64,000 nucleotides of DNA from Candidatus Fraserbacteria bacterium (GTDB lineage Bacteria; Bipolaricaulota; Bipolaricaulia; RBG-16-55-9; DRXL01), in assembly GCA_947085185.1 (NCBI GenBank), contig CAMTVK010000003.1:964-64963 (forward strand). Reading direction: 5' to 3'. The position numbers and the translations under genes were made by a program. The first letter of the stretch is position 1. Every line of letters begins with the position of its first letter. The notes under the pieces are model-generated. The model saw only the letters and a program-made list of their open reading frames with translations. It searched no databases and was not told the origin of the DNA. Positions 14,837-56,047 of the stretch are shown piece after piece.

Positions 14837-15714
14837 GCACGCCTCCCTTCTTGTGATCTCATGAGTTTTTCTAACTCCCCCTCGGCCATACTGTAAAAAT
14901 GCTCCGGTTGCGGGAATTTTTTGGTCTTCACTTCCTCCCGATAGCGCGAGAACGCTTCTAATAAGATCGGACTGAGATTCGCATAGCGTTTGACGAACTT
15001 GGGCGTGAAGCGCTCGAACATCCCGATCATGTCGTGGACGATCATCAGCTGGCCGTCCACATCTTTGCCGCTCCCTAAGCCGTAGACGGGGATCTTCACA
15101 CGCTCGTGAATGATCTTGGCTACCGGGGCTGGGACGCACTCTAAGAGTATAGCGAACGCCCCGGCTTCTTCGAGGGCCTCGGCGTCGGCGATCAATCTTT
15201 GGGCTGTTTGGGCATCGCGCCCTTGGGCTTTGTAGCCGCCCAACTGGGTGTACGATTGCGGCGTTAAGCCAATGTGTCCCATCACGGGGATGCCCGCGTC
15301 GGTGATCGCCCTCACGACAGGGGCCATGCGCGCCCCGCCTTCTAACTTGACGGCATCGGTGCCGCATTCCGCCATAAAGCGCCCGGCATTTCGGATCGCT
15401 TCTTCTTTGGAGATCTGATAGCTCATATAGGGCATATCTCCGATCACAAAAGCGTACTTGACAGCGCGACAGACGGCTGCCGTAAACGTAATCATCACGT
15501 CCATCGTGACGGGCAGCGTCGTTTGATAGCCGAGCATGGTCATGCCGAGCGAGTCCCCTACTAAGATCATGTCGATGCCGGCGCGGTCCATCAGGAGCGC
15601 TGTGGGGTAATCATAGCACGTGAGCCAACTGACGGGCTCTTTGTTCGCCTTCATCTCGTAGAGCTTGGGAATGGTGATCTTCTCGCGATCGGGCTTGTGG
15701 GGTGTGGGTGCCAT
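14833..15714 (-). CDS. panB: 3-methyl-2-oxobutanoate hydroxymethyltransferase
   Basis: Colinear PanB pattern (…LTCYDYPTA…GDSLGMT…). Confidence 0.9.
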   Translation of the reverse strand: MAPTPHKPDREKITIPKLYEMKANKEPVSWLTCYDYPTALLMDRAGIDMILVGDSLGMTMLGYQTTLPVTMDVMITFTAAVCRAVKYAFVIGDMPYMSYQISKEEAIRNAGRFMAECGTDAVKLEGGARMAPVVRAITDAGIPVMGHIGLTPQSYTQLGGYKAQGRDAQTAQRLIADAEALEEAGAFAILLECVPAPVAKIIHERVKIPVYGLGSGKDVDGQLMIVHDMIGMFERFTPKFVKRYANLSPILLEAFSRYREEVKTKKFPQPEHFYSMAEGELEKLMRSQEGRRA

Positions 15715-15744
15715 AAATATCTGCCTCCTTCTTTTTCCATGGGT

Positions 15745-15773
15745 TTGGCTTGTGCACAGTCACGTGCTATACT
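15745..15773 (+). promoter_or_regulatory. Promoter TTGGCT-N17-TATACT for hicB; ATG 7 nt downstream (leaderless)
   Basis: Hexamers seen; hicB ATG at 15780. Confidence 0.4.
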
Positions 15774-15779
15774 TAAAGT

Positions 15780-16034
15780 ATGGCAAGCAAGAAGCGCGAA
15801 CGGATCACATATCTGGTCACGCTGCGTGAGGCCGAGGAAGGGGGCTACACCGTTGAAGTGCCGGCTCTGCCCGGCTGCGTCTCCGAAGGCGCGACCTATG
15901 AGGAGGCGTTGGCAAACATCCGCGAAGCGATCGTTGCTTACCTTGCAGAGCTGGGCGACGAACTGAACCCTCGAGCGCGCGTGATGATCACCGCAGTCGA
16001 AGTGGAGGTGCCAGCTCTGCCAGTCCATGCCTGA
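15780..16034 (+). CDS. hicB: HicB-family antitoxin
   Basis: 84 aa, …GGYTVEVPALPGCVSEGATYEEALANIREAI… HicB fold signature. Confidence 0.75.
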   Translation: MASKKRERITYLVTLREAEEGGYTVEVPALPGCVSEGATYEEALANIREAIVAYLAELGDELNPRARVMITAVEVEVPALPVHA

Positions 16035-16251
16035 CAAGCTGCCCCAGGTTTCGGGCCAGCGAGCTGCCCAGGCTTTTGTGCGCGCAGGCTGGGTCATCCG
16101 TGAAGAAGGTCCGCACATCATCTTGACTAAGGCGGGAGTGCGATACAATCTCTCCGTGCCCAACCATCGCCAGCTCAAGAGGGGCACGCTGCGCAGTTTG
16201 ATTCGCAAAGCCGGCTTGACCGTTGAGGAGTTCATACGATTGCTTCCCTAG
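16027..16251 (+). CDS. hicA: HicA-family mRNA interferase toxin
   Basis: 74 aa, basic YcfA/HicA-like (…GWVIREEGPHIILTK…); 8-bp overlap with hicB. Confidence 0.75.
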   Translation: MPDKLPQVSGQRAAQAFVRAGWVIREEGPHIILTKAGVRYNLSVPNHRQLKRGTLRSLIRKAGLTVEEFIRLLP

Positions 16252-38973: not shown

Positions 38974-40845
38974 TTACGGGAGCGGCCCGAAGACGGACGC
39001 CCCGGTCAGCCAATACGCTACGAGCGTCTGTAATATCTTGAGATCGATTTTACCAAAGACTACCTTGCCGTCAGCCTCTCGGTTCTTCACCGGTTTATCA
39101 CCGAGCCAAAAGAACGAGACGGCCGATTGAATTTGCTCGAAGTTGATCGTCGTTGTCTCCAGCCAAAGATTGACCTTGGGGTTGGCGGCATCGCTGACGT
39201 CCATGCGCGCGAAGATCACGGGGAAGGGGAGTCTGGTGACGACTTTGATCTCCGCTTCGCCGGCGATGGCAAGCTCAAACGCCGGTGAGGCGCTGCTGAT
39301 CGAACCGGAGAGCTTGACCACCCGCGGTGTCGGGTCTTTAGGAGGTTCAGGAATAGTCAGCTCATACTCGATGGTGCGCACGGTCCCTGGCTCGAGGACT
39401 TCCAAGAAGACCCAGAGCACTTCGCCTGGGAGTGGTCGTGCGGTGCCGCTCTCTGTGGAGACGAGGTTGAACGTGAGATCGTTAGGGAAGCGCTCAGTGA
39501 CGACGAGGCCATTGATGCGATCCAGGGCCTGGATAGTGATCTTGACTCTGACGCGCTCGCCGTGAATAGTCTCGTCGTTGGGGAGGTTCGTATCAAGAGT
39601 TCGGGTAGCGATGGCTCGCGGGGTAAAGACTTTGACGGTCTTTGTTGCGCTCGCTCTTTCGCCGTCGGTGTCGGTGACGGTCAGAGTCACAGAATAGCTT
39701 CCGTCGGCGCTGTAGCGATGGACGGGGTTCTGTTCGCTTGAGCTTGTCCCGTCGCCAAAGTTCCACGCCCACGCGACGATCCCCACATCATCGGTCGAGC
39801 GATCTAGGAACGTGATGGGCTCATTGGCCTTGGGCTCAGCGGGCGTGAACTCAAAGCTCACCGTAGGTGGGCGGTTGCGATCCCGCGCGACAATAGACAG
39901 AGCAGCGACCGTGGGGGTGACGAGCCTCCCCCGCGCGTCCAAATAACTGAGGGTGGGCTTGATGAGCGCTGTTCCCGTCTGAGAGCTGGTCACGGTAAAG
40001 CTCGCTTCGAAGGTCTCCCCAGCGCTCAAGCCGTCGAGCTCCCACACGATCGTCGTCGTGGTATCGGGGTTCTTCGTGACGCGATTGGGGGCATTGAGCG
40101 TCGCGATCCCGTAGGTCAAGAACGCGGGCAGCACGAGCGTAATTCTTATCTGCCGCGCGACGACTCTCCTTCCCAACGCTTGAGCGATCTGTTGCGGGAC
40201 GAGCTCACTGAACTGCTCGAAGAACTGTCCCTGGGTGAGCCGGGCCAGCTCGCGCAAGAGCGTCTTATCGGGGGTGCGCCCCGTCGCAATAGTGAAGATC
40301 GTCACGCCGCTCTCGGCAGATCGTTGGGCTTGCGACAGAGGAGTTCGCCCGACGTTGGCCCGCCCGTCGCTCACCAAGACCATGGCCCACGAAGCGTCTT
40401 CGCGCCCGTTTCTCTGCAGAGTCTCGAGGGCTGTGGCAATCCCTTCCCCCACGGCCGTCTTGCCCAAGGGGCGCAGGAGCTTCAGCCCTTGGCGGACAGC
40501 TTCATGATCGAACGTGAGCGGGACATCCACACGCGCGTCCGTCCCAAACGAGACAAGACCAACACGATCTGATGGCGACAGCGCCTCAACGATCGCCGTG
40601 CCGATCTTCTCCATCTCGCGAACGTTCACAGTCGCCGAGCGATCTATGACGAGAAAGAGATCTGTTGGGGCGCGCGCGCCGGGCTCGCCTGCCGAGAGCC
40701 GCACGGTGATCGTGCCCTCCTGGTTGACAAAGAGCGCCGTGGGGGAGATGCTCAGCTCCAGCTGCACCGGCGGCGCGGCGACTTGAGCCAGCCCAGTCAG
40801 TGCTCCAAGACCAAGCAGGCTCATCGCGCCGAGTATTCGTCTCAT
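38974..40845 (-). CDS. Secreted vWA + PKD multidomain protein with C-terminal shared module
   Basis: Signal peptide; vWA (LVIDRSATV…LVSDGRANVG); PKD (WNFGDGTSS…LTVTDTDG); C-terminal ~80-aa module (…INFEQIQSAVSFFWLGD…). Confidence 0.75.
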   Translation of the reverse strand: MRRILGAMSLLGLGALTGLAQVAAPPVQLELSISPTALFVNQEGTITVRLSAGEPGARAPTDLFLVIDRSATVNVREMEKIGTAIVEALSPSDRVGLVSFGTDARVDVPLTFDHEAVRQGLKLLRPLGKTAVGEGIATALETLQRNGREDASWAMVLVSDGRANVGRTPLSQAQRSAESGVTIFTIATGRTPDKTLLRELARLTQGQFFEQFSELVPQQIAQALGRRVVARQIRITLVLPAFLTYGIATLNAPNRVTKNPDTTTTIVWELDGLSAGETFEASFTVTSSQTGTALIKPTLSYLDARGRLVTPTVAALSIVARDRNRPPTVSFEFTPAEPKANEPITFLDRSTDDVGIVAWAWNFGDGTSSSEQNPVHRYSADGSYSVTLTVTDTDGERASATKTVKVFTPRAIATRTLDTNLPNDETIHGERVRVKITIQALDRINGLVVTERFPNDLTFNLVSTESGTARPLPGEVLWVFLEVLEPGTVRTIEYELTIPEPPKDPTPRVVKLSGSISSASPAFELAIAGEAEIKVVTRLPFPVIFARMDVSDAANPKVNLWLETTTINFEQIQSAVSFFWLGDKPVKNREADGKVVFGKIDLKILQTLVAYWLTGASVFGPLP

Positions 40846-44866: not shown

Positions 44867-46227
44867 GGCAGGCTCCCCTCAGGGTATCGCCCCGTAAAGC
44901 ACGAGGTACAGAAGAGCTCAGGGTGCTCTACGCACCGCTGCAGCTCCTCTACCGTCAGATAGATCACGGAATCCGCCCCAATAAAGCGCGCGATCTCGCT
45001 CAGCGTCCGACTGGAAGCGACGAGCTCCTCTTTGGTAGGCATGTCAATCCCAAAATAACACGGCGAGATCAAGGGCGGCGACGCGATCCTCAGATGGACT
45101 TCTTTGGCGCCAAACTCTCGTAACACGTGGACGATCGCGCGCGAGGTCGTCCCCCGCACGATCGAGTCGTCTACGAGCGCAATGCGTCGGCCGTGCAACA
45201 CGTCACGCAAGGGCAGCAGCTTCATGCGCACTCTGTGAACGCGCGACTCTTGAGAGGGCTCGATGAAGCTCCGCCCGACATAGTGACTCCGGATGAGCCC
45301 AAACTCCAAGGGCTTCTGCAGCTCACGAGAGTACCCCAGCGCCGCCGGCAGCCCCGAATCGGGCACCGGCACGACAATATCGATCTCGTACGTCTCTTTC
45401 TGCGCCAGCAGCACCCCAGCAGCCTTGCGAAACTCATAGACGTTCTGCCCAAAGAGTTTACTATCGGGTCGGGCAAAATAAATAAGTTCAAAGACGCACT
45501 GGCGGCACGGGCGCTTTGGACCAAAACGCACCGATTGCATCCCGTCCCTATTGATAATCACGGCTTCGCCGGGCTCGATCTCGCGGAGGAACTGCGCCCC
45601 AACCATGTCCAACGCGGCCGTCTCCGAGGCGACACAGAAGTCAGCACCCCGCCGCCCCACCACCAACGGACGGAACCCAAAGGGATCGCGCGCCGCAATC
45701 AGATGCTCCCCGTCAATCATGACGAGCGCATACGCCCCCAGGGCCCTGTGAGCGATAAATTCTAATCTCTCGTGAGGGCTTGCCTTGGGGACTTGCGCGT
45801 ACAGATGGAGCAAGCTCTCCGTGTCTGAGGTGCTCTGAAACGAGACGCCCTTGGCGTGAAGCTCCGCTCTCAGCTGGGCAGCATTGGAGAGATTGCCGTT
45901 GTGAGCGAGCGCGATCCAGCGCCCTTCTCTGCGCACAATAAACGGCTGCGCGTTCTCTTGGCGGGCGCTCTCCCCGTGGGTCGAGTATCGGGTATGCGCG
46001 ATCCCCATGTGCCCTCGCAAGAGCTCCACCCGCCCCCGACTATAGACATCGGTGACGAGCCCCAGATCTTTGTAGCAGCGCAGCTCTCGTCCGTCGGAGA
46101 CCGCAAATCCTGCGGCCTCTTGACCGCGGTGCTGCACCGCGAAGATCCCCAGATACAGGGCCTCGGCGATCTCGTCCGACTCGCTGAAGATCGCAAAGAG
46201 CCCGCACTCTTCTTTGAGTTTCATCAT
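44836..46227 (-). CDS. purF: Amidophosphoribosyltransferase (with N-terminal propeptide before catalytic Cys)
   Basis: …EECGLFAIF… Ntn Cys, PRTase motif. Confidence 0.9.
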   Translation of the reverse strand: MMKLKEECGLFAIFSESDEIAEALYLGIFAVQHRGQEAAGFAVSDGRELRCYKDLGLVTDVYSRGRVELLRGHMGIAHTRYSTHGESARQENAQPFIVRREGRWIALAHNGNLSNAAQLRAELHAKGVSFQSTSDTESLLHLYAQVPKASPHERLEFIAHRALGAYALVMIDGEHLIAARDPFGFRPLVVGRRGADFCVASETAALDMVGAQFLREIEPGEAVIINRDGMQSVRFGPKRPCRQCVFELIYFARPDSKLFGQNVYEFRKAAGVLLAQKETYEIDIVVPVPDSGLPAALGYSRELQKPLEFGLIRSHYVGRSFIEPSQESRVHRVRMKLLPLRDVLHGRRIALVDDSIVRGTTSRAIVHVLREFGAKEVHLRIASPPLISPCYFGIDMPTKEELVASSRTLSEIARFIGADSVIYLTVEELQRCVEHPELFCTSCFTGRYPEGSLPCAIEMLEST

Positions 46228-48377
46228 ACGCTCTCTGGGAGCGCCGCCTCATAGATCCGATACAGCTCGGCGATCGAGACGCGCTCCCCACAGAACTCAA
46301 GGGAATCTCCCGACACAACCCCCACTCGCCGATAGGGCACCCCAAACTCCTCAAGCGTCTTGCGAAGCGGCGCTTCACATTCAGGCGCTACGGTGATGAC
46401 CAAGCGCGACGGCCACTCCCCAAAGAGAAATTCTTCACAAGAATCTCCCAGATCCAGACGCGCCCCCAACCCCCGCACAAATCCCTTCTCCGCCACAGCT
46501 ACACATAATCCCCCCTCCGAGACATCATGAGCGCTCGCTAAAATCTGGCGATCTGTGAGAGCCAGCATCGCGCGAAGCAGCCTGCGCTCAAGCTCTATGT
46601 CGGTCCTGTCTAAGTCCCCCCACCACGCCTTATAAAAGACTTTCATAAACTCACTGCCCCCAACATGCCCTCCCTCAAGCTGCCCAATGAGATAGATCAG
46701 ATCCCCCTCACGCTGAAACCCCATAGGCACCAGCTTCCCTAAGTCTTCTACAAGCCCCACCATCCCCACGATCGGCGTGGGATAGATCTGACGCTCTGCG
46801 GATTGATTGTAGAAACTCACATTTCCCGAGACAAACGGCAGCTCCAACGCTTGAGCGGCCTTGGCCATGCCGCGGATTGTCTGCTCGAACGACCAGAAGA
46901 CTTGTGGATCGGTGGGGTTGGCAAAATTGAGACAGTCCGTGATCCCCAGCGGCCGCGCCCCCACACTGATCAGGTTATGAACGGCTTCGCAGACCGCCCG
47001 AACGCCCCCTTCGTAGGGGTCTATCTGACAGAAGCGTCCGTTGCCCCCTATCGTGACGGCTATCCCAAATCGTTCGCCCTTCACCCGCAAGACCGCGGCA
47101 TCGTGCGATCCCGGACCGACGACGGTGTTGGTCTGCACCGTGTGATCGTATTGCTCAAAGATCCAGCGCTTCGAGGCGATCGTTGCCGATCGCAAGAGCT
47201 CTTTGAGCACGTCGCAACGTGCCCCTACACCCTGGCGCTTCATGGGCACGTTGCAACGTGCCCCTACACCCTGGCGCTTCATGGGCACGTCGCAACGTGC
47301 CCCTACTGGCGCCCCACCCACTAAGAGCTCTATGGGCACCTCCGCGATCGTCCGCCCCTCGTGACGAATTCTGTAGACCCGCTCGGCGATCACCTCCCCG
47401 ATCACCGCCGCCTCCAAGCCCCACTTGCGATAGACTTGCACGAATTTCTGTGCGCTCCCAGCTTGGACGCAGAGCACCATGCGCTCCTGCGACTCCGACA
47501 GAAGGATCTCAGAGGGGGTCATGGTGGGATCGCGCAGCGGGATCTCCTCCAGATCAAGGGCAATCCCCACTCCCCCTCGAGCGGCCATCTCCGCTGGGGC
47601 GGTCGCAAGCCCTCCCGCCCCTAAGTCTTGCAGCCCGATCAGCTCTGGAAATTGACAGACTTCTAACGTGGCTTCGATCAAAGACTTCCCCGTGAACGGA
47701 TCCCCCACTTGGACGTTGGGACGCTTCGCTTCGGTCTCCCCAATAAGATCTTGCGAAGCAAAAGTCGCCCCGTGGATCCCGTCACGTCCCGTGCGCGCCC
47801 CCACTAAGAGAATCTTATTGCCGACCCCACCGGCTCGTGCCCTCTTGAGCTCCGACTTCTTCAGCAGCCCCACACACATCACGTTGACCAGACAGTTCTC
47901 AGCGTAGGCCTCATCGAAAGCGACGTCGCCCCCCACCGTGGGCACCCCCACGCAATTCCCATAATGACTGATCCCCGCCACGACCCCCCTCAAGAGCCGC
48001 CGGGCATGAGCACCCTCCCCAAAGCGCAGAGAGTCTAACAGCGCTATGGGCCGCGCCCCCATGCTCAAAATATCTCGGATAATCCCACCAACCCCGGTCG
48101 CCGCCCCATGGAACGGCTCGACGGCCGAGGGATGATTGTGGCTCTCGACTTTGAACGCGACACACCACGTATTCTGGAGCTCAATCACCCCGGCGTTCTC
48201 CCCAGGCCCCGCTACCACGTGCTTGCCCGTCGTCGGCAAGAGTTTTAAGAGCCTCTTGGAGCTCTTGTAGCTACAGTGCTCCGACCAGTTGAGCTCAAAG
48301 AGCCCAAGCTCCAGCTCGTTGGGCCTACGCCCCAACGCCGCACAGATTCTCTGGTATTCCTCCGGAGAAAGCCTCAT
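46224..48377 (-). CDS. purL: Phosphoribosylformylglycinamidine synthase II
   Basis: Colinear PurL pattern; contains in-frame 13-aa tandem insert VGARC[DN]VPMKRQG x2.5. Confidence 0.9.
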   Translation of the reverse strand: MRLSPEEYQRICAALGRRPNELELGLFELNWSEHCSYKSSKRLLKLLPTTGKHVVAGPGENAGVIELQNTWCVAFKVESHNHPSAVEPFHGAATGVGGIIRDILSMGARPIALLDSLRFGEGAHARRLLRGVVAGISHYGNCVGVPTVGGDVAFDEAYAENCLVNVMCVGLLKKSELKRARAGGVGNKILLVGARTGRDGIHGATFASQDLIGETEAKRPNVQVGDPFTGKSLIEATLEVCQFPELIGLQDLGAGGLATAPAEMAARGGVGIALDLEEIPLRDPTMTPSEILLSESQERMVLCVQAGSAQKFVQVYRKWGLEAAVIGEVIAERVYRIRHEGRTIAEVPIELLVGGAPVGARCDVPMKRQGVGARCNVPMKRQGVGARCDVLKELLRSATIASKRWIFEQYDHTVQTNTVVGPGSHDAAVLRVKGERFGIAVTIGGNGRFCQIDPYEGGVRAVCEAVHNLISVGARPLGITDCLNFANPTDPQVFWSFEQTIRGMAKAAQALELPFVSGNVSFYNQSAERQIYPTPIVGMVGLVEDLGKLVPMGFQREGDLIYLIGQLEGGHVGGSEFMKVFYKAWWGDLDRTDIELERRLLRAMLALTDRQILASAHDVSEGGLCVAVAEKGFVRGLGARLDLGDSCEEFLFGEWPSRLVITVAPECEAPLRKTLEEFGVPYRRVGVVSGDSLEFCGERVSIAELYRIYEAALPESV
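47207..47306. repeat. 39-bp tandem repeat (2.5 copies) containing hairpin GGGCACGT-N4-ACGTGCCC, inserted in-frame in purL
   Basis: Seen directly; unit gcacgt[ct]gcaacgtgcccctacaccctggcgcttcatgg; same palindrome family at 53956-53998. Confidence 0.85.
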
Positions 48378-53000: not shown

Positions 53001-53519
53001 CCATTCTTCATAGCGATCTTCACTCAAATACTCCCCACGATAGAGCGCCACGGCCCTCTCAAACGAACGGAGCGCTTCCTCGAACTTCCCCGCGCTATGG
53101 GCGCGCCGCCCCGCCTCTTCGAGCTTGGAAAACTCTTCAGCATCTATCCAACAATCACTCGCCTCAGAGAAGAGATAGCCCCCGCGCTGCGTGAGAATAT
53201 AGCGTGACTGCTCCCCGCGTCCCGGCTCTAAGATCTTTCTCAGTTCGGCGACACGGCTTCTCAGATTGGACGCGGCGCTACGCAAAGACAGCCCTTCCCC
53301 AGGCCACAGATACTCGATCAACTCGTCGGCAGAGAAGACCCGGCCACGCTCGCCCGCGAGAATCTTTAAGAGTGCCAGAGTCTTGGCGTTCCTCCAAGAC
53401 CCCACAAGCTCCCCATCACGAAAGACTGCAAAATTGCCGAAGAAGAAAATTTTTACCCCATAGGAGTGCCTGCTATTGTAGCCCCCAGACAAGGGGGGTG
53501 CAAAGTGCCCACTTTGCAC
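50022..53519 (-). CDS. STAND-type transcriptional regulator: OmpR-like winged helix + BTAD (SARP/AfsR) + NB-ARC/AAA ATPase + TPR repeats (1165 aa)
   Basis: Winged-helix and BTAD pattern at N-terminus, Walker A GEAGVGKT, extended TPR array; GTG start at 53519. Confidence 0.8.
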   Translation of the reverse strand: MQSGHFAPPLSGGYNSRHSYGVKIFFFGNFAVFRDGELVGSWRNAKTLALLKILAGERGRVFSADELIEYLWPGEGLSLRSAASNLRSRVAELRKILEPGRGEQSRYILTQRGGYLFSEASDCWIDAEEFSKLEEAGRRAHSAGKFEEALRSFERAVALYRGEYLSEDRYEEWAHLPRERWRERFVEVLSLLADCLARRGEYRRALSCLERAVSESPLQETLYRQVMVYAFCAGDRGRAVSAYERCRAVLERELGERPSSHTEEIYRQIQSERAPDWERVYPKPKKPSTFAARRLPFVGRHIEWGRLCRALERARAGSARLVLLVGEAGVGKTRLGEEFLSYAREHAGVQTLYGRCYELESPMPLHLWGEALREGISLLSRADLVNVPLAWVAELAEIMPELRRLCEGVSAVALPPDFRQYRLFETLSQMVCALAHRAPLVVMLDDLQWADLSSLDLLLFLLERCAHAPLLILGAARLEELGDRLERVRHHALRLGIFEEIPLGRWSEQELGEFVKSLALEATADFRERLYQESLGNPLFCIAALEALFENGAFVREGSKWRVVAPSQIELASAAMQLLERRVKRISSAAQRVLQLLSCAVHAELEVLESAWDGTAEELLVHLGELGAQGLVVERGGRYEFAHDKFREVMSKQLEAPQKIWWHRRLAQAIARVYVDPQAAGMAGRLAEHYEQGGQLVHALEWTFKAINDYGRRYHLEEGLQLVEQGLRLLQKLAGRLSERERLEKEFDLILERLDLQLKGSQLKAAQENLEGLLSLAGRLDILHQAKALHWQALWHIRAAHYHQALQYAQEAYRLSDSNSTLQAVILDQIGLIHFRMGDYRAALQYYQQALEIFRTCDRLKEAHAWNDCANALVKLGDYRRALEHYEMSLKLYRELQEQKKVSAVLNNMGAARRYLGEYQQALSHLEQACAIDRTTGDRLGLGFSLCNLAQTYRLLGRWSEALKLSQEAYQIFSSLEDRFGQCMMQRWLGATYRELGDPQRAQKYLKQALENAYAIKAHAEEGECLLEMAQTLLDVGDLEKSLQKLQLALQLSHQLDWSYLTARVYLAQSAAHLACHDAQSAWSAAQAALELITQHSWGGELVIRAHYLKYRALKALSHPEALDALHAAVDELQKTAAQVTDPSLRSSFLNIPIYREILTESLTA

Positions 53520-53589
53520 GAGCTTTGCAAGGGGCTGCTAGACTCCAGCCGTCGAACACCACAACACACAAAAGAAGGAGGCGATCAGC

Positions 53590-53943
53590 ATGTTCGACAG
53601 AGTGAAGGTCGTGCGGACGGTCGTAGCGGTTCTGGCCCTGATGGTCGTGGGGACGGTCTTGGTGGGGACGGCGCAGCAGCCGACAAACCCCGCGGATATC
53701 GCGAGCGCGCTCGTAGCATACTATAAGATCGGCAACCGGCCCACCAGCATCACCGCAGCGGAACTCGATCAGCGCATCGCGTACTTCCCAGACTTTGGAG
53801 ATGGCACGATCGAAGCGATGAAGAAGGCTGCCCCGATCGAGACCGTCAGCAAGCTTGTCAATCTCAAAAACAGCAAGGGCAAAAACTTGCTCTCGCAAAA
53901 GCAGATCATTCTGCTCTTGACGTTCTATAACTTAAAGCCGTAG
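53590..53943 (+). CDS. Small secreted/membrane-anchored hypothetical protein
   Basis: AAGGAGG RBS, signal/TM segment VVAVLALMVVGTVLVG. Confidence 0.6.
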   Translation: MFDRVKVVRTVVAVLALMVVGTVLVGTAQQPTNPADIASALVAYYKIGNRPTSITAAELDQRIAYFPDFGDGTIEAMKKAAPIETVSKLVNLKNSKGKNLLSQKQIILLLTFYNLKP

Positions 53944-53955
53944 GCCGGGCCACGC

Positions 53956-53998
53956 GTAGGGGCACGTCGCGTAGGGGCACGTCGCAACGTGCCCCTAC
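53956..53998. repeat. Palindromic repeat element GTAGGGGCACGTCGC(x2)-AACGTGCCCCTAC; 12-bp stem hairpin, likely bidirectional terminator
   Basis: Seen between convergent genes; overlaps stop codon of 53995-54480 gene; related to purL insert. Confidence 0.65.
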
Positions 53999-54480
53999 GC
54001 CCGCACAAACCGCACCCGCCCGTCAGCACCCTTCTCCGCATAGTACGCTTCTACAGCAATGGGCAGCCCCAGACCCCGCAGCGCCTGCACGATCTGTCGC
54101 AAGTCCTCCCGCTGCCGTTCCTTGAGAGAACCACCCACCCCAAACCTCTGCAAGAACTGCGGGACGAACCGCTCGTCACTATACCAAGCACAGTCCTCGT
54201 GCGCGATCGCGATGACCCTCTGGAGCCTGTGGCGCTCGACTAAGAACTTCACCCAGCGCTGTCCAACCCACGCGAACTTGGGCAAGTACTCGGTCAGTAA
54301 CAGAAACTGCGGCCCACCAGGAACAGCTAACAGATCATACGCCCCCTTCTGGAGCCCCAGCCCCTTCTCTAAGAACTCCTGAGTGTAGGGCAAGAACGCA
54401 TTGCTGGAACACGCGATCACCAACACGGTGCTCTGGTGCTCCACAAACGGCGTCTGCACAGTGTAGACAGATTCTGCCAT
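53995..54480 (-). CDS. Hypothetical protein (161 aa), weak beta-carbonic-anhydrase-like Cys…HxxC pattern
   Basis: VLVIACSS… and IAHEDCAW motifs; otherwise unrecognised. Confidence 0.5.
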   Translation of the reverse strand: MAESVYTVQTPFVEHQSTVLVIACSSNAFLPYTQEFLEKGLGLQKGAYDLLAVPGGPQFLLLTEYLPKFAWVGQRWVKFLVERHRLQRVIAIAHEDCAWYSDERFVPQFLQRFGVGGSLKERQREDLRQIVQALRGLGLPIAVEAYYAEKGADGRVRFVRA

Positions 54481-54490
54481 CGGCGCTCCT

Positions 54491-56047
54491 CTATTTCTTC
54501 GCTTCTTCAGACTTGACCCCGATCTTGCTCAACAGCCCACTGATGTCCAACCCCAGCGCTTGAGCTGCTTGCATCACGTTGAACATCGTCGTCGGGACGG
54601 TATTCGCCAGACGACTGAGCGTGTTCGCGCCATCGGGGGAGCCACCGCTGTCGAGCATCACGAGTTTATCTATATTGCCCAACGGGGCCGCGACAGCTCC
54701 GGCGACCGGAGCGAACGCTTTGATCACATCGGGCAGTCTCTCGAGCACGAGCATCGTCTTGGCGGACTCGTCGAGCTTCGCGAACGCCTCGGCTTTTTTC
54801 AGAGCGCCCTCGGCTTCGGCTAAGAGCTTGGCTTTGGTCCCCTCAGCTTCGGCCAAGAGCTTGGCTTTAGTGCCTTCGGCTTCGGCCAAGAGCTTGGCTT
54901 TGGTGCCTTCGGCTTCGGCCAAGAGCTTGGCGCGCATGGCGTCGGCCTCGCCAATGCCCTCCAGCGCTAAGCGCTGCTTCTCCGCGTCGGCAATGACGAT
55001 GATCGCCGTCTTGCGGCCTTCGGCCTCTAAGATCTCTTTCTGTTTGGTTGCTTCGGCTTGCAAGATGATCTGCTGTCTTTGGGCTTCGGCGGGCTTGATC
55101 ACCTCGGCTAAGAGCTGGCGCTCGCGCCGGATCGCCTCGGCTTCAGCCACTTCGATCTGCTTCTTCGTGCGCACGTATTCGACTTGAACTTCTTGTTCGA
55201 CGACCTCTTGACGGGCCTTCGCTTCGGCCAGCGGGCCGGCTTGACGGGCTTTGGCTTGTTGGGCTTGGACTTCTGCTTCAAATTGGGCTCTCTTCACATC
55301 GCGCTCTTTTTCGGCTTGGGCGATGAGCGCCAGATTCTCATTCTCGCGCTCTTTGGCCTCGCGCAGCGCCGTGCTCGATTTGATGATGGCTTCGCGCTCG
55401 GCTTCCGCTTCCCCAATGCGCGCATCACGCTTGACTTCCGCCGTGCGCTTCTTGCCCAGCGCTTCGATATACCCCTCAGAGTCCCAGATCTTCTGAATCG
55501 TCAAGACGTCCACGCCCAGGCCGATCTTGGCCAAGTCTGCCGCGGCCTCCATCAGAACTTCTTGATTGAACTTGGCGCGATCCCGCACGATCTCTTCGAC
55601 CGTCAGCCGCCCGATGATCGAGCGCAGATGGCCCTCTAAATTTTTATAGGCGATCTGCTTAATATCGTCCAAGCTGCGCCCAAGAAATCTCTCCGCGGCG
55701 GCGATGAGCGACTCCTCATCGTTGCGGATCTTGACGTTCGCAACGGCCTGAGCGCTGACGAGCACCCCGTCTTTGTTGGGCATGTCCCGCACTTCTAGAT
55801 CGATGGGGAAGATCGTGAGATCGAGATACGTGACGCTCTCGATGACCGGCCACTTGAGCGCGGCGCCCCCGGTCACGAGGCGAAAACCGATCACTTTGCC
55901 GTCGGGCGTGCGGTGCTTGCGCCCGTAGAAGACCGCCACTTTGTTCGGGGGCACTTTGATATAATTGCGCACCGCGGTCATCACGACCACCAGCATGATC
56001 AACGCGATGAGCACCAGCAAGAACGGCAACGTCGTCAGTCCGAACAT
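54491..56047 (-). CDS. Flotillin-like SPFH/band-7 protein
   Basis: N-terminal TM + SPFH domain, long EA-rich coiled coil with KLLAEAEGTKA repeats. Confidence 0.85.
   Translation of the reverse strand: MFGLTTLPFLLVLIALIMLVVVMTAVRNYIKVPPNKVAVFYGRKHRTPDGKVIGFRLVTGGAALKWPVIESVTYLDLTIFPIDLEVRDMPNKDGVLVSAQAVANVKIRNDEESLIAAAERFLGRSLDDIKQIAYKNLEGHLRSIIGRLTVEEIVRDRAKFNQEVLMEAAADLAKIGLGVDVLTIQKIWDSEGYIEALGKKRTAEVKRDARIGEAEAEREAIIKSSTALREAKERENENLALIAQAEKERDVKRAQFEAEVQAQQAKARQAGPLAEAKARQEVVEQEVQVEYVRTKKQIEVAEAEAIRRERQLLAEVIKPAEAQRQQIILQAEATKQKEILEAEGRKTAIIVIADAEKQRLALEGIGEADAMRAKLLAEAEGTKAKLLAEAEGTKAKLLAEAEGTKAKLLAEAEGALKKAEAFAKLDESAKTMLVLERLPDVIKAFAPVAGAVAAPLGNIDKLVMLDSGGSPDGANTLSRLANTVPTTMFNVMQAAQALGLDISGLLSKIGVKSEEAKK
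54812..54936. repeat. 33-bp tandem repeat x~4 within flotillin gene
   Basis: ggcttcggccaagagcttggctttggtgccttc units seen directly. Confidence 0.8.

Follow-up and report, generated by a model that had tools for sequence, protein, structure and literature searches.

The window analysed here, a 64,000-nucleotide (nt) stretch of contig CAMTVK010000003.1 from a Candidatus Fraserbacteria bacterium, carries a short tandem array of repetitive extragenic palindromic (REP) elements in frame inside purL and a further copy between two convergent genes. The host gene encodes phosphoribosylformylglycinamidine (FGAM) synthase II and sits in a purC-purS-purQ-purL-purF operon. Its product has two AIRS, two AIRS_C and the FGAR-AT linker domains in Pfam, matches the PurL of T. 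thermophilus over its full length (PDB 3VIU, E=3e-194), and finds its best homologues in metagenome assemblies of Bipolaricaulota/Acetothermia. An earlier note, made from the letters of the window, had proposed that a REP-like palindromic repeat lies in frame in this housekeeping gene, and both the Pfam identity of PurL and the reading of its open reading frame (ORF) bear this out.

GTAG-headed hairpins in purL and between convergent genes

Tandem Repeats Finder (TRF) reports one strong tandem repeat at 47207-47306, with a period of 39, 2.6 copies, 96% matches and a score of 193, in agreement with the 39-bp units in about 2.5 copies described in the earlier note and far beyond chance. Each full unit (39 nt, 13 codons) is made of a 24-nt GTAG-headed hairpin and a 15-nt spacer, and the units follow one another in direct, head-to-tail order. 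In the purL frame the array reads VGARCDVPMKRQG VGARCNVPMKRQG VGARCDV, with the consensus VGARC[DN]VPMKRQG. The stem of the third, truncated unit stops at ...GTGCTC, and the native flank CTCAAAGAG imperfectly completes its last bases. Allowing up to two mismatches, the hairpin GGGGCACGT-N4-ACGTGCCCC has four sites in the window (0.00 expected from shuffles), three within the array and one at 53974-53995, and the 12-mer GTAGGGGCACGT occurs six times where 0.16 would be expected. The GTAG-tagged form, GTAG-GGGCACGT-N4-ACGTGCCC, lies at 47217-47228, 47256-47267 and 47295-47306 on the minus strand and again at 53971-53998. The hairpin itself thus stands as the earlier note had drawn it, and the both-footed palindrome does not hold for purL, since there the GTAG foot is on the coding strand only (GTAG-GGGCACGT-TGCG-ACGTGCCC, then ATG). 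RNA of the array region folds far more stably than shuffled sequences (z=-7.4).

The array together with an Ala-Pro pair (47307-47312) corresponds to amino acids (aa) 356-390 of PurL, the linker between its two halves. An AlphaFold2 model built on 31 homologues has a predicted TM score of 0.89, a predicted local distance difference test score below 50 at aa 359-383, and no secondary structure at aa 354-386. The 33 residues encoded by the REPs, three of them cysteines, are therefore predicted to form a disordered loop between the two pseudo-symmetric halves of the enzyme.

The second locus (53953-53998) starts 10 nt past the end of a conserved 117-aa ORF and overlaps the stop codon of a convergent 161-aa ORF, as the earlier note had recognized. 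It consists of a half-site duplication followed by a perfect palindrome, GTAGGGGCACGTCGCAACGTGCCCCTAC, whose 14-bp stem is the strongest local hairpin in the window. This copy has the 'double-foot' form (5' GT[AG]G and 3' C[TC]AC), whereas the purL copies have one foot only. In the 161-aa ORF the final Ala codon and the TAG stop both come from the REP, and the protein ends in ...RFVRA in the window and in ...HFAREG in a close relative, contig L001. The 117-aa ORF is identical to its L001 counterpart at 114 of 118 aligned positions, the stop codon counted. At the same intergenic site L001 has a different hairpin, GGGAGGGCACGGAA-TC-TTCCGTGCTCCTCCC, and in the lineage of the window the REP has replaced another hairpin there.

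The suggestion that the intergenic copy is a terminator did not survive: a scan of 53500-54500 for intrinsic terminators passes over the REP, and neither strand has a T-run after the hairpin. REPs of E. coli stabilise 3' ends. By analogy, the hairpin most likely serves as a protective 3' RNA stem for the two convergent transcripts, not as an intrinsic terminator. At gathering thresholds Rfam found no RNA family in the 64-kb window, that is, no tRNA, riboswitch or other known RNA, and for the REP neither gathering nor permissive thresholds gave a real family, only sub-threshold miRNA-like noise.

Replacement of the linker and repeats in related lineages

The relative L001 encodes a PurL (P0002) that is 92% identical to that of the window, and it shows synteny with the window across 22 kb, the DNA being about 95-97% identical. 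With the linker set aside, identity between the two PurL proteins is 97% and 96%. Between the common flanks ...GGTGGGGC(G/A)CC and CTCAAAGAGCTC..., the window has the 99-nt REP array and L001 has 108 nt. Homology of the two linker DNAs, suspected by eye, was rejected, as local and global alignments scored no better than shuffles (p about 0.3-0.4). The L001 linker begins with PEPEL and finishes with SWxxxLK, as in most of the clade, and the window lacks both; the state of the window is therefore the derived one. A linker of ancestral type has given way to the REP array (from about 108 nt to 99 nt) without a change of reading frame. The earlier note was right that the segment is lineage-specific, since the PurL alignment shows none in a relative about 96% identical in DNA, but its view that the array adds 26 aa has to be given up: the linker measures 35 aa in the window, 38 aa in L001 and a similar length in the solved T. 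thermophilus structure. L001 has no copy of the palindrome in its 22 kb, and its comparison with the window reveals no duplicated target site at the purL or the intergenic junction.

Some further features emerged from the same comparison. The upstream flank of the array (47307-47315, GGGGCGCCA on the coding strand, directly before GTAG) and the 3' part of the spacer (47229-47243, AAGCGCCAGGGT, likewise before GTAG) have GCGCCAG in common, which could possibly represent microhomology for duplication or a fourth, degenerate unit; the L001 codons that match this upstream flank read GCACCT. Elsewhere, L001 has about 1.05 kb extra (15145-16201, opposite window 43251/43252) with a 324-aa bicupin/AraC_binding gene absent from the window, and window 39018-39485 (about 470 nt) is a further stretch in which the two diverge.

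In three more distant relatives (contigs L121, L122 and L123, the last from GCA_037440025.1), other palindromic repeats lie in frame in PurL (P0012, P0030 and P0049), in a loop after LRFGE, in the inter-half linker and at the C-terminus, and they recur between genes of the same loci. The L122 repeat is CCCTCTCCG-N4-CGGAGAGGG and that of L121 is CCCCCTTCCCTTTAGGGAAGGGGG, while L123 has one longer element twice in frame in purL, in the LRFGE loop and the inter-half linker, with 86 nt exact. Likewise, the gap where the 161-aa and 117-aa genes converge contains a different strong palindrome in each of the five lineages, with RNA folding energies from -44 to -72 kcal/mol, and the conserved motif GGCCCGGCCTACGG follows it. 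Each of the five PurL linker DNAs also has a better fold than shuffled sequence (z from -2.5 to -5.5). We dropped the idea that the PurL linker is always unusually structured DNA because this is not distinctive, one of two flanking control segments also having z=-3.2.

The hairpin in other genomes and its closest known family

Scanning one genome per species for GTAGGGGCACGT-N4-ACGTGCCC returned at least 119 stretches. Among the matches listed are Planctomycetota (many of them Brocadiales), Nitrospirota, Desulfobacterota, Chloroflexota, Acidobacteriota, Bacteroidota/Ignavibacteria, Cyanobacteria, Dadabacteria and others. None of the 119 listed stretches is from the organism of the window. Most of them are perfect 28-nt palindromes with the loop TGCA, and over 128 sites the conserved unit is the 24-28-nt hairpin alone. 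Because the flanking sequences in other genomes are unrelated, the element appears to be the hairpin itself and not a longer MITE (miniature inverted-repeat transposable element). The label 'MITE-like' used in the earlier note is for this reason no longer apt, and a true MITE (70-300 bp, with terminal inverted repeats and a target-site duplication) was rejected, both hallmarks being absent. In the IMG/VR collection 5 of 2.9 million viral contigs contain the palindrome, one of them (L128) in three copies within 14 kb; phage carriage is rare there.

Clustering of the ORFs near the listed sites gave a single family that recurs across genomes, a RAYT-like protein, about 180 aa long, that bears the motifs PNH[VILF]HGI, WQRNYYEH and YIxNNP. 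The palindrome lies in or beside such an ORF at 9 of the 119 listed loci, and at eight of these the palindrome is in frame inside the ORF, where it reads RGTLQRAPT between the HuH and Tyr motifs. These eight genes come from unrelated genomes, and two of the loci (L089 and L116) have extra partial copies. The best library match of the RAYT-like ORFs is NCBIfam REP_Tyr_transpos (E=5e-19). The palindrome is also in frame in proteins of other phyla: in the interdomain linker of MutL, in TsaD, in chorismate synthase (AroC; two Thermodesulfovibrionia metagenome-assembled genomes (MAGs), same site), in PheT between the B3_4 and B5 domains, in an FAD oxidoreductase, and in a B12-radical SAM protein between two domains. 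In these other housekeeping proteins the insertions are mostly at domain boundaries. Two frames of the palindrome are open, giving VGARCNVPL or RGTLQRAPT, and the third has a TAG. That both peptides come simply from these open frames argues for the amino-acid sequence being a passenger of the DNA element.

GTAG-tagged REPs are known from earlier work (Nunvar 2010, PMC2817692; Di Nocera 2013, PMC3733652). They prefer convergent and unidirectional intergenic sites, where REP ends donate TAG stops; more than half of the intragenic ones are dimers or groups that code for 20-30 aa, with clusters up to 82 aa, and they were proposed to be neutral in flexible linkers (PMC3733652). In a classification of TnpA_REP proteins, subclass 2.4 has the signature NH[IFV]H / WQ / YIxNNP, a patchy spread over many phyla, and 'double-foot' REPs with 5' GT[AG]G and 3' C[TC]AC that sit in frame inside the tnpA_REP gene (Quentin 2018, PMC6006769). 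The closest known family of our element is this one, the GTAG-tagged 'double-foot' REPs of subclass 2.4. The purL and intergenic hairpins are GC-rich stem-loops within the 20-40 bp range with GTAG directly at the foot, and the intergenic copy has CTAC at the other foot. As in the published families, the element lies downstream of convergent ORFs with a donated TAG (53953-53998) and forms an in-frame group of the size class of 20-30 aa in a linker. The RAYT-like genes of other genomes, and only those, show the subclass 2.4 arrangement of an in-frame REP, which there is the same sequence as here and occupies the interval between the HuH and Tyr motifs. The published GTAG families differ in being mostly head-to-head or tail-to-tail dimers, whereas in purL the copies follow one another directly in tandem, each time separated by the fixed spacer of 15 nt, and the purL array replaced a linker instead of extending it. 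A precedent is the FGAM synthase of Opitutus terrae (Oter_3711), in which two dimers of GTAG-17 REPs lie in frame (PMC3733652, supplementary file 4). The enzyme function is the same, but Oter_3711 is a large single-chain PurL of 1438 aa that has 16-aa dimers of a different REP family at two sites, unlike the small, 717-aa PurL of the window with its tandem array in the linker between the halves.

The comparison with Rickettsia palindromic elements (RPEs) drawn in the earlier note remains apt as a mode of behaviour, RPEs also being palindromic repeats in frame in genes of functional proteins, at surface or linker positions (summarised in PMC3733652). It does not hold as a statement of closest family. 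RPE-1 is described as a 'longer palindromic insertion' and the intragenic RPE-4 and RPE-6 of R. conorii are CGTC-tagged (PMC3733652), in contrast to the 24-28-nt, GTAG-tagged hairpin here, and the RPE host is obligate intracellular whereas the Bipolaricaulota-like host of the window is, to judge from the metagenome sources of its relatives, presumably free-living. REPINs, too, are short, REP-derived and RAYT-associated, but are made of two REPs inverted around a spacer (Bertels and Rainey 2011, PMC3116915). We rejected this class, as the purL units are head-to-tail direct repeats and the intergenic locus has a direct half-site duplication. A CRISPR array was rejected because all the 15-nt 'spacers' have the same sequence and every part of the array is coding.

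The coordinates of these features are collected in Table 1. Unrelated to the REPs, the minus-strand ORF 54491-56047, a flotillin/Band 7 gene, contains at 54803-54967 a 33-nt tandem repeat in about 3.8 copies that encodes a perfect (T)KAKLLAEAEG (11 aa) four times, an apparent coiled-coil segment.

Table 1. Features of the window and of the contigs compared with it (contigs other than the window are given by our own numbers)
Feature	Contig	Position	Strand	Remarks
purL, FGAM synthase II, 717 aa, host gene	window	46224..48377	-	Pfam, PDB 3VIU and homologues
REP array, 99 nt (33 codons)	window	47208..47306	-	TRF; boundaries from alignment to relative L001
REP unit 1	window	47268..47306	-	GTAG-headed hairpin GTAGGGGCACGT-TGCG-ACGTGCCC and 15-nt spacer ATGAAGCGCCAGGGT; encodes VGARCDVPMKRQG
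REP unit 2	window	47229..47267	-	as unit 1 but loop TGCA; encodes VGARCNVPMKRQG
REP unit 3	window	47208..47228	-	truncated hairpin; encodes VGARCDV
Conserved 117-aa ORF converging on REP	window	53590..53943	+	gene also called in L001, L121, L122 and L123
Direct duplication (15 nt) of left REP arm	window	53953..53982	+	CGCGTAGGGGCACGT twice; TRF period 15, 2.2 copies, 100% matches
Perfect 'double-foot' REP	window	53971..53998		GTAG-GGGCACGT-CGCA-ACGTGCCC-CTAC; 28-nt palindrome
TAG stop codon of 161-aa ORF	window	53995..53997	-	from REP foot
161-aa ORF	window	53995-54480	-	3' end overlaps REP
Convergent gap with palindrome	window	53943-53995		
Convergent gap with palindrome	L001	4343-4422		
Convergent gap with palindrome	L121	285-369		
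Convergent gap with palindrome	L122	4098-4197		
Convergent gap with palindrome	L123	2295-2384		
Longer repeat element	L123	10372-10457; 11218-11303		also at about 2350 and 4365 (recurs intergenically nearby)
RAYT-like gene with in-frame palindrome	L035	679-1233		
RAYT-like gene with in-frame palindrome	L051	86-616		
RAYT-like gene with in-frame palindrome	L073	7255-7755		
RAYT-like gene with in-frame palindrome	L078	3759-4322		
RAYT-like gene with in-frame palindrome	L089	3636-4196		
RAYT-like gene with in-frame palindrome	L094	3430-4011		
RAYT-like gene with in-frame palindrome	L111	5845-6435		
RAYT-like gene with in-frame palindrome	L116	3062-3811		
In-frame REP site in other protein	L009	827-854		
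In-frame REP site in other protein	L043	3744-3771		
In-frame REP site in other protein	L052	1290-1313		
In-frame REP site in other protein	L100	543-566		
In-frame REP site in other protein	L119	6347-6370		
In-frame REP site in other protein	L093	3019-3046		
In-frame REP site in other protein	L040	6438-6461		

Origin of the array and its meaning

The feature in purL is, with good though not full confidence, a short array of GTAG-tagged REPs of the 'double-foot' type, of the kind that elsewhere accompanies the RAYT/TnpA_REP HuH tyrosine nucleases of subclass 2.4. In this organism's DNA, two REP loci with four hairpins and a half-site fall within 64 kb where 0 would be expected. A reasonable scenario is that a REP copy reached the PurL linker when a RAYT whose gene lies elsewhere in the genome processed single-strand DNA, or alternatively that it came from another REP copy by template switching or gene conversion. 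Slipped-strand mispairing, favoured by the hairpins, would then have duplicated the 39-nt unit, and the ancestral linker would have been lost by deletion. Purifying selection on an essential enzyme of purine synthesis may have retained only net changes in multiples of three in a tolerant loop, and the VGARC... peptide is most likely a neutral passenger.

Several observations weigh against the assignment to this REP type. Two loci in 64 kb leave a genome-wide family in this organism unproven, and a tblastn search with the eight RAYT-like ORFs detected no RAYT gene, neither in the window nor in four related contigs (79 kb), its absence from the 64-kb window being a difference from the subclass 2.4 systems. 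The NCBIfam score of the RAYT-like ORFs of other genomes, 68.7 bits, is under the curated cut-off of 80, and their match to Pfam Y1_Tnp is weak. The 15-nt spacer was not found beside the REPs of the other fetched loci. Transposition of REPs by RAYTs is unshown in vivo, and the mechanisms of their dissemination have been called 'poorly understood' (PMC8266576). Finally, the 30-nt spacer/REP junction has 0 matches in JGI metagenomes, so that a second assembly of the array allele was not obtained.

This last result would also fit an assembly artefact, such as a chimeric palindrome or a repeat that was collapsed or expanded when a MAG was put together from short reads, all the more as the protein P0001 comes from a single NCBI contig. 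We consider an artefact very improbable: the ORF is intact and in frame, both flanks of the array are collinear with purL of the relative, the copies carry point differences (loop TGCG versus TGCA), the 99 nt of the array are under a typical read length, the element at the second locus makes a sensible stop codon, and the identical sequence is present in about a hundred independent assemblies. A different possibility is that the REP-bearing linker arose in another strain and came into this genome when a purL segment was exchanged by homologous recombination. Directly beside the linker, the flanks hardly differ from those of the relative, though the locus overall differs by 3-5%, which is compatible with a recombination patch, but the same flanks also encode strongly conserved protein segments, and the same gain at an unlinked second site 6.7 kb away points to REP activity in this lineage; allelic import is thus unlikely.

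Adaptive value of the array, either of the Cys-containing peptide repeat or of a strong structure in the purL mRNA, is also improbable, more so than import though less so than an artefact. Its possible roles include a metal or redox site, a ribosome pause, or an exonuclease block that sets the levels of purCSQ versus purLF, and the stable RNA fold, the three cysteines in the linker and the preserved frame are compatible with such roles. Against this, the peptide is frame 1 of a DNA palindrome that gives VGARCNVPL in unrelated proteins as well, the segment is predicted to be disordered, the closest relative manages without the array, and quite different repeats are found at the same place in related lineages.

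Much of what we describe for the preferred reading, an array of GTAG-tagged REPs, is already known, namely in-frame GTAG REPs, TAG donation, the preference for convergent sites and REPs in an FGAM synthase (PMC3733652), and our analysis reveals no new kind of element and no new function. What is new is modest: the phylum of the host, an inter-half linker of PurL that was cleanly replaced, tandem units in direct order with a spacer of fixed length, and the fact that different repeat families have repeatedly colonised the same PurL loops across the phylum. Our literature search found nothing relevant on repeats in Bipolaricaulota/Acetothermia.

For annotation, the VGARC... peptide is translated REP DNA and not a feature of PurL, and is easily mis-annotated; the stretches RGTLQRAPT and VGARCNVPL in many metagenomic proteins are likewise translated REP DNA. 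Our findings extend the range of in-frame REP colonisation to an uncultured phylum, the Bipolaricaulota/Acetothermia, and to the inter-half linker of small PurL. The window and its 96%-identical relative constitute a clean before-and-after pair at two sites, which is useful for the unsettled question of how REPs spread. It is conceivable, though doubtful, that in Bipolaricaulota the PurL loops (LRFGE, inter-half linker and C-terminus) and the gap between the convergent 161-aa and 117-aa genes hold the current palindromic repeats of each lineage, one structured element replacing another, by means of HuH-type single-strand enzymes that target pre-existing hairpins. The same pattern may instead reflect the mere survival of neutral or harmless insertions at such sites. 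If the targeting of existing hairpins by HuH enzymes were true, the comparison of these loci would give direct evidence of the way in which REPs find their sites.

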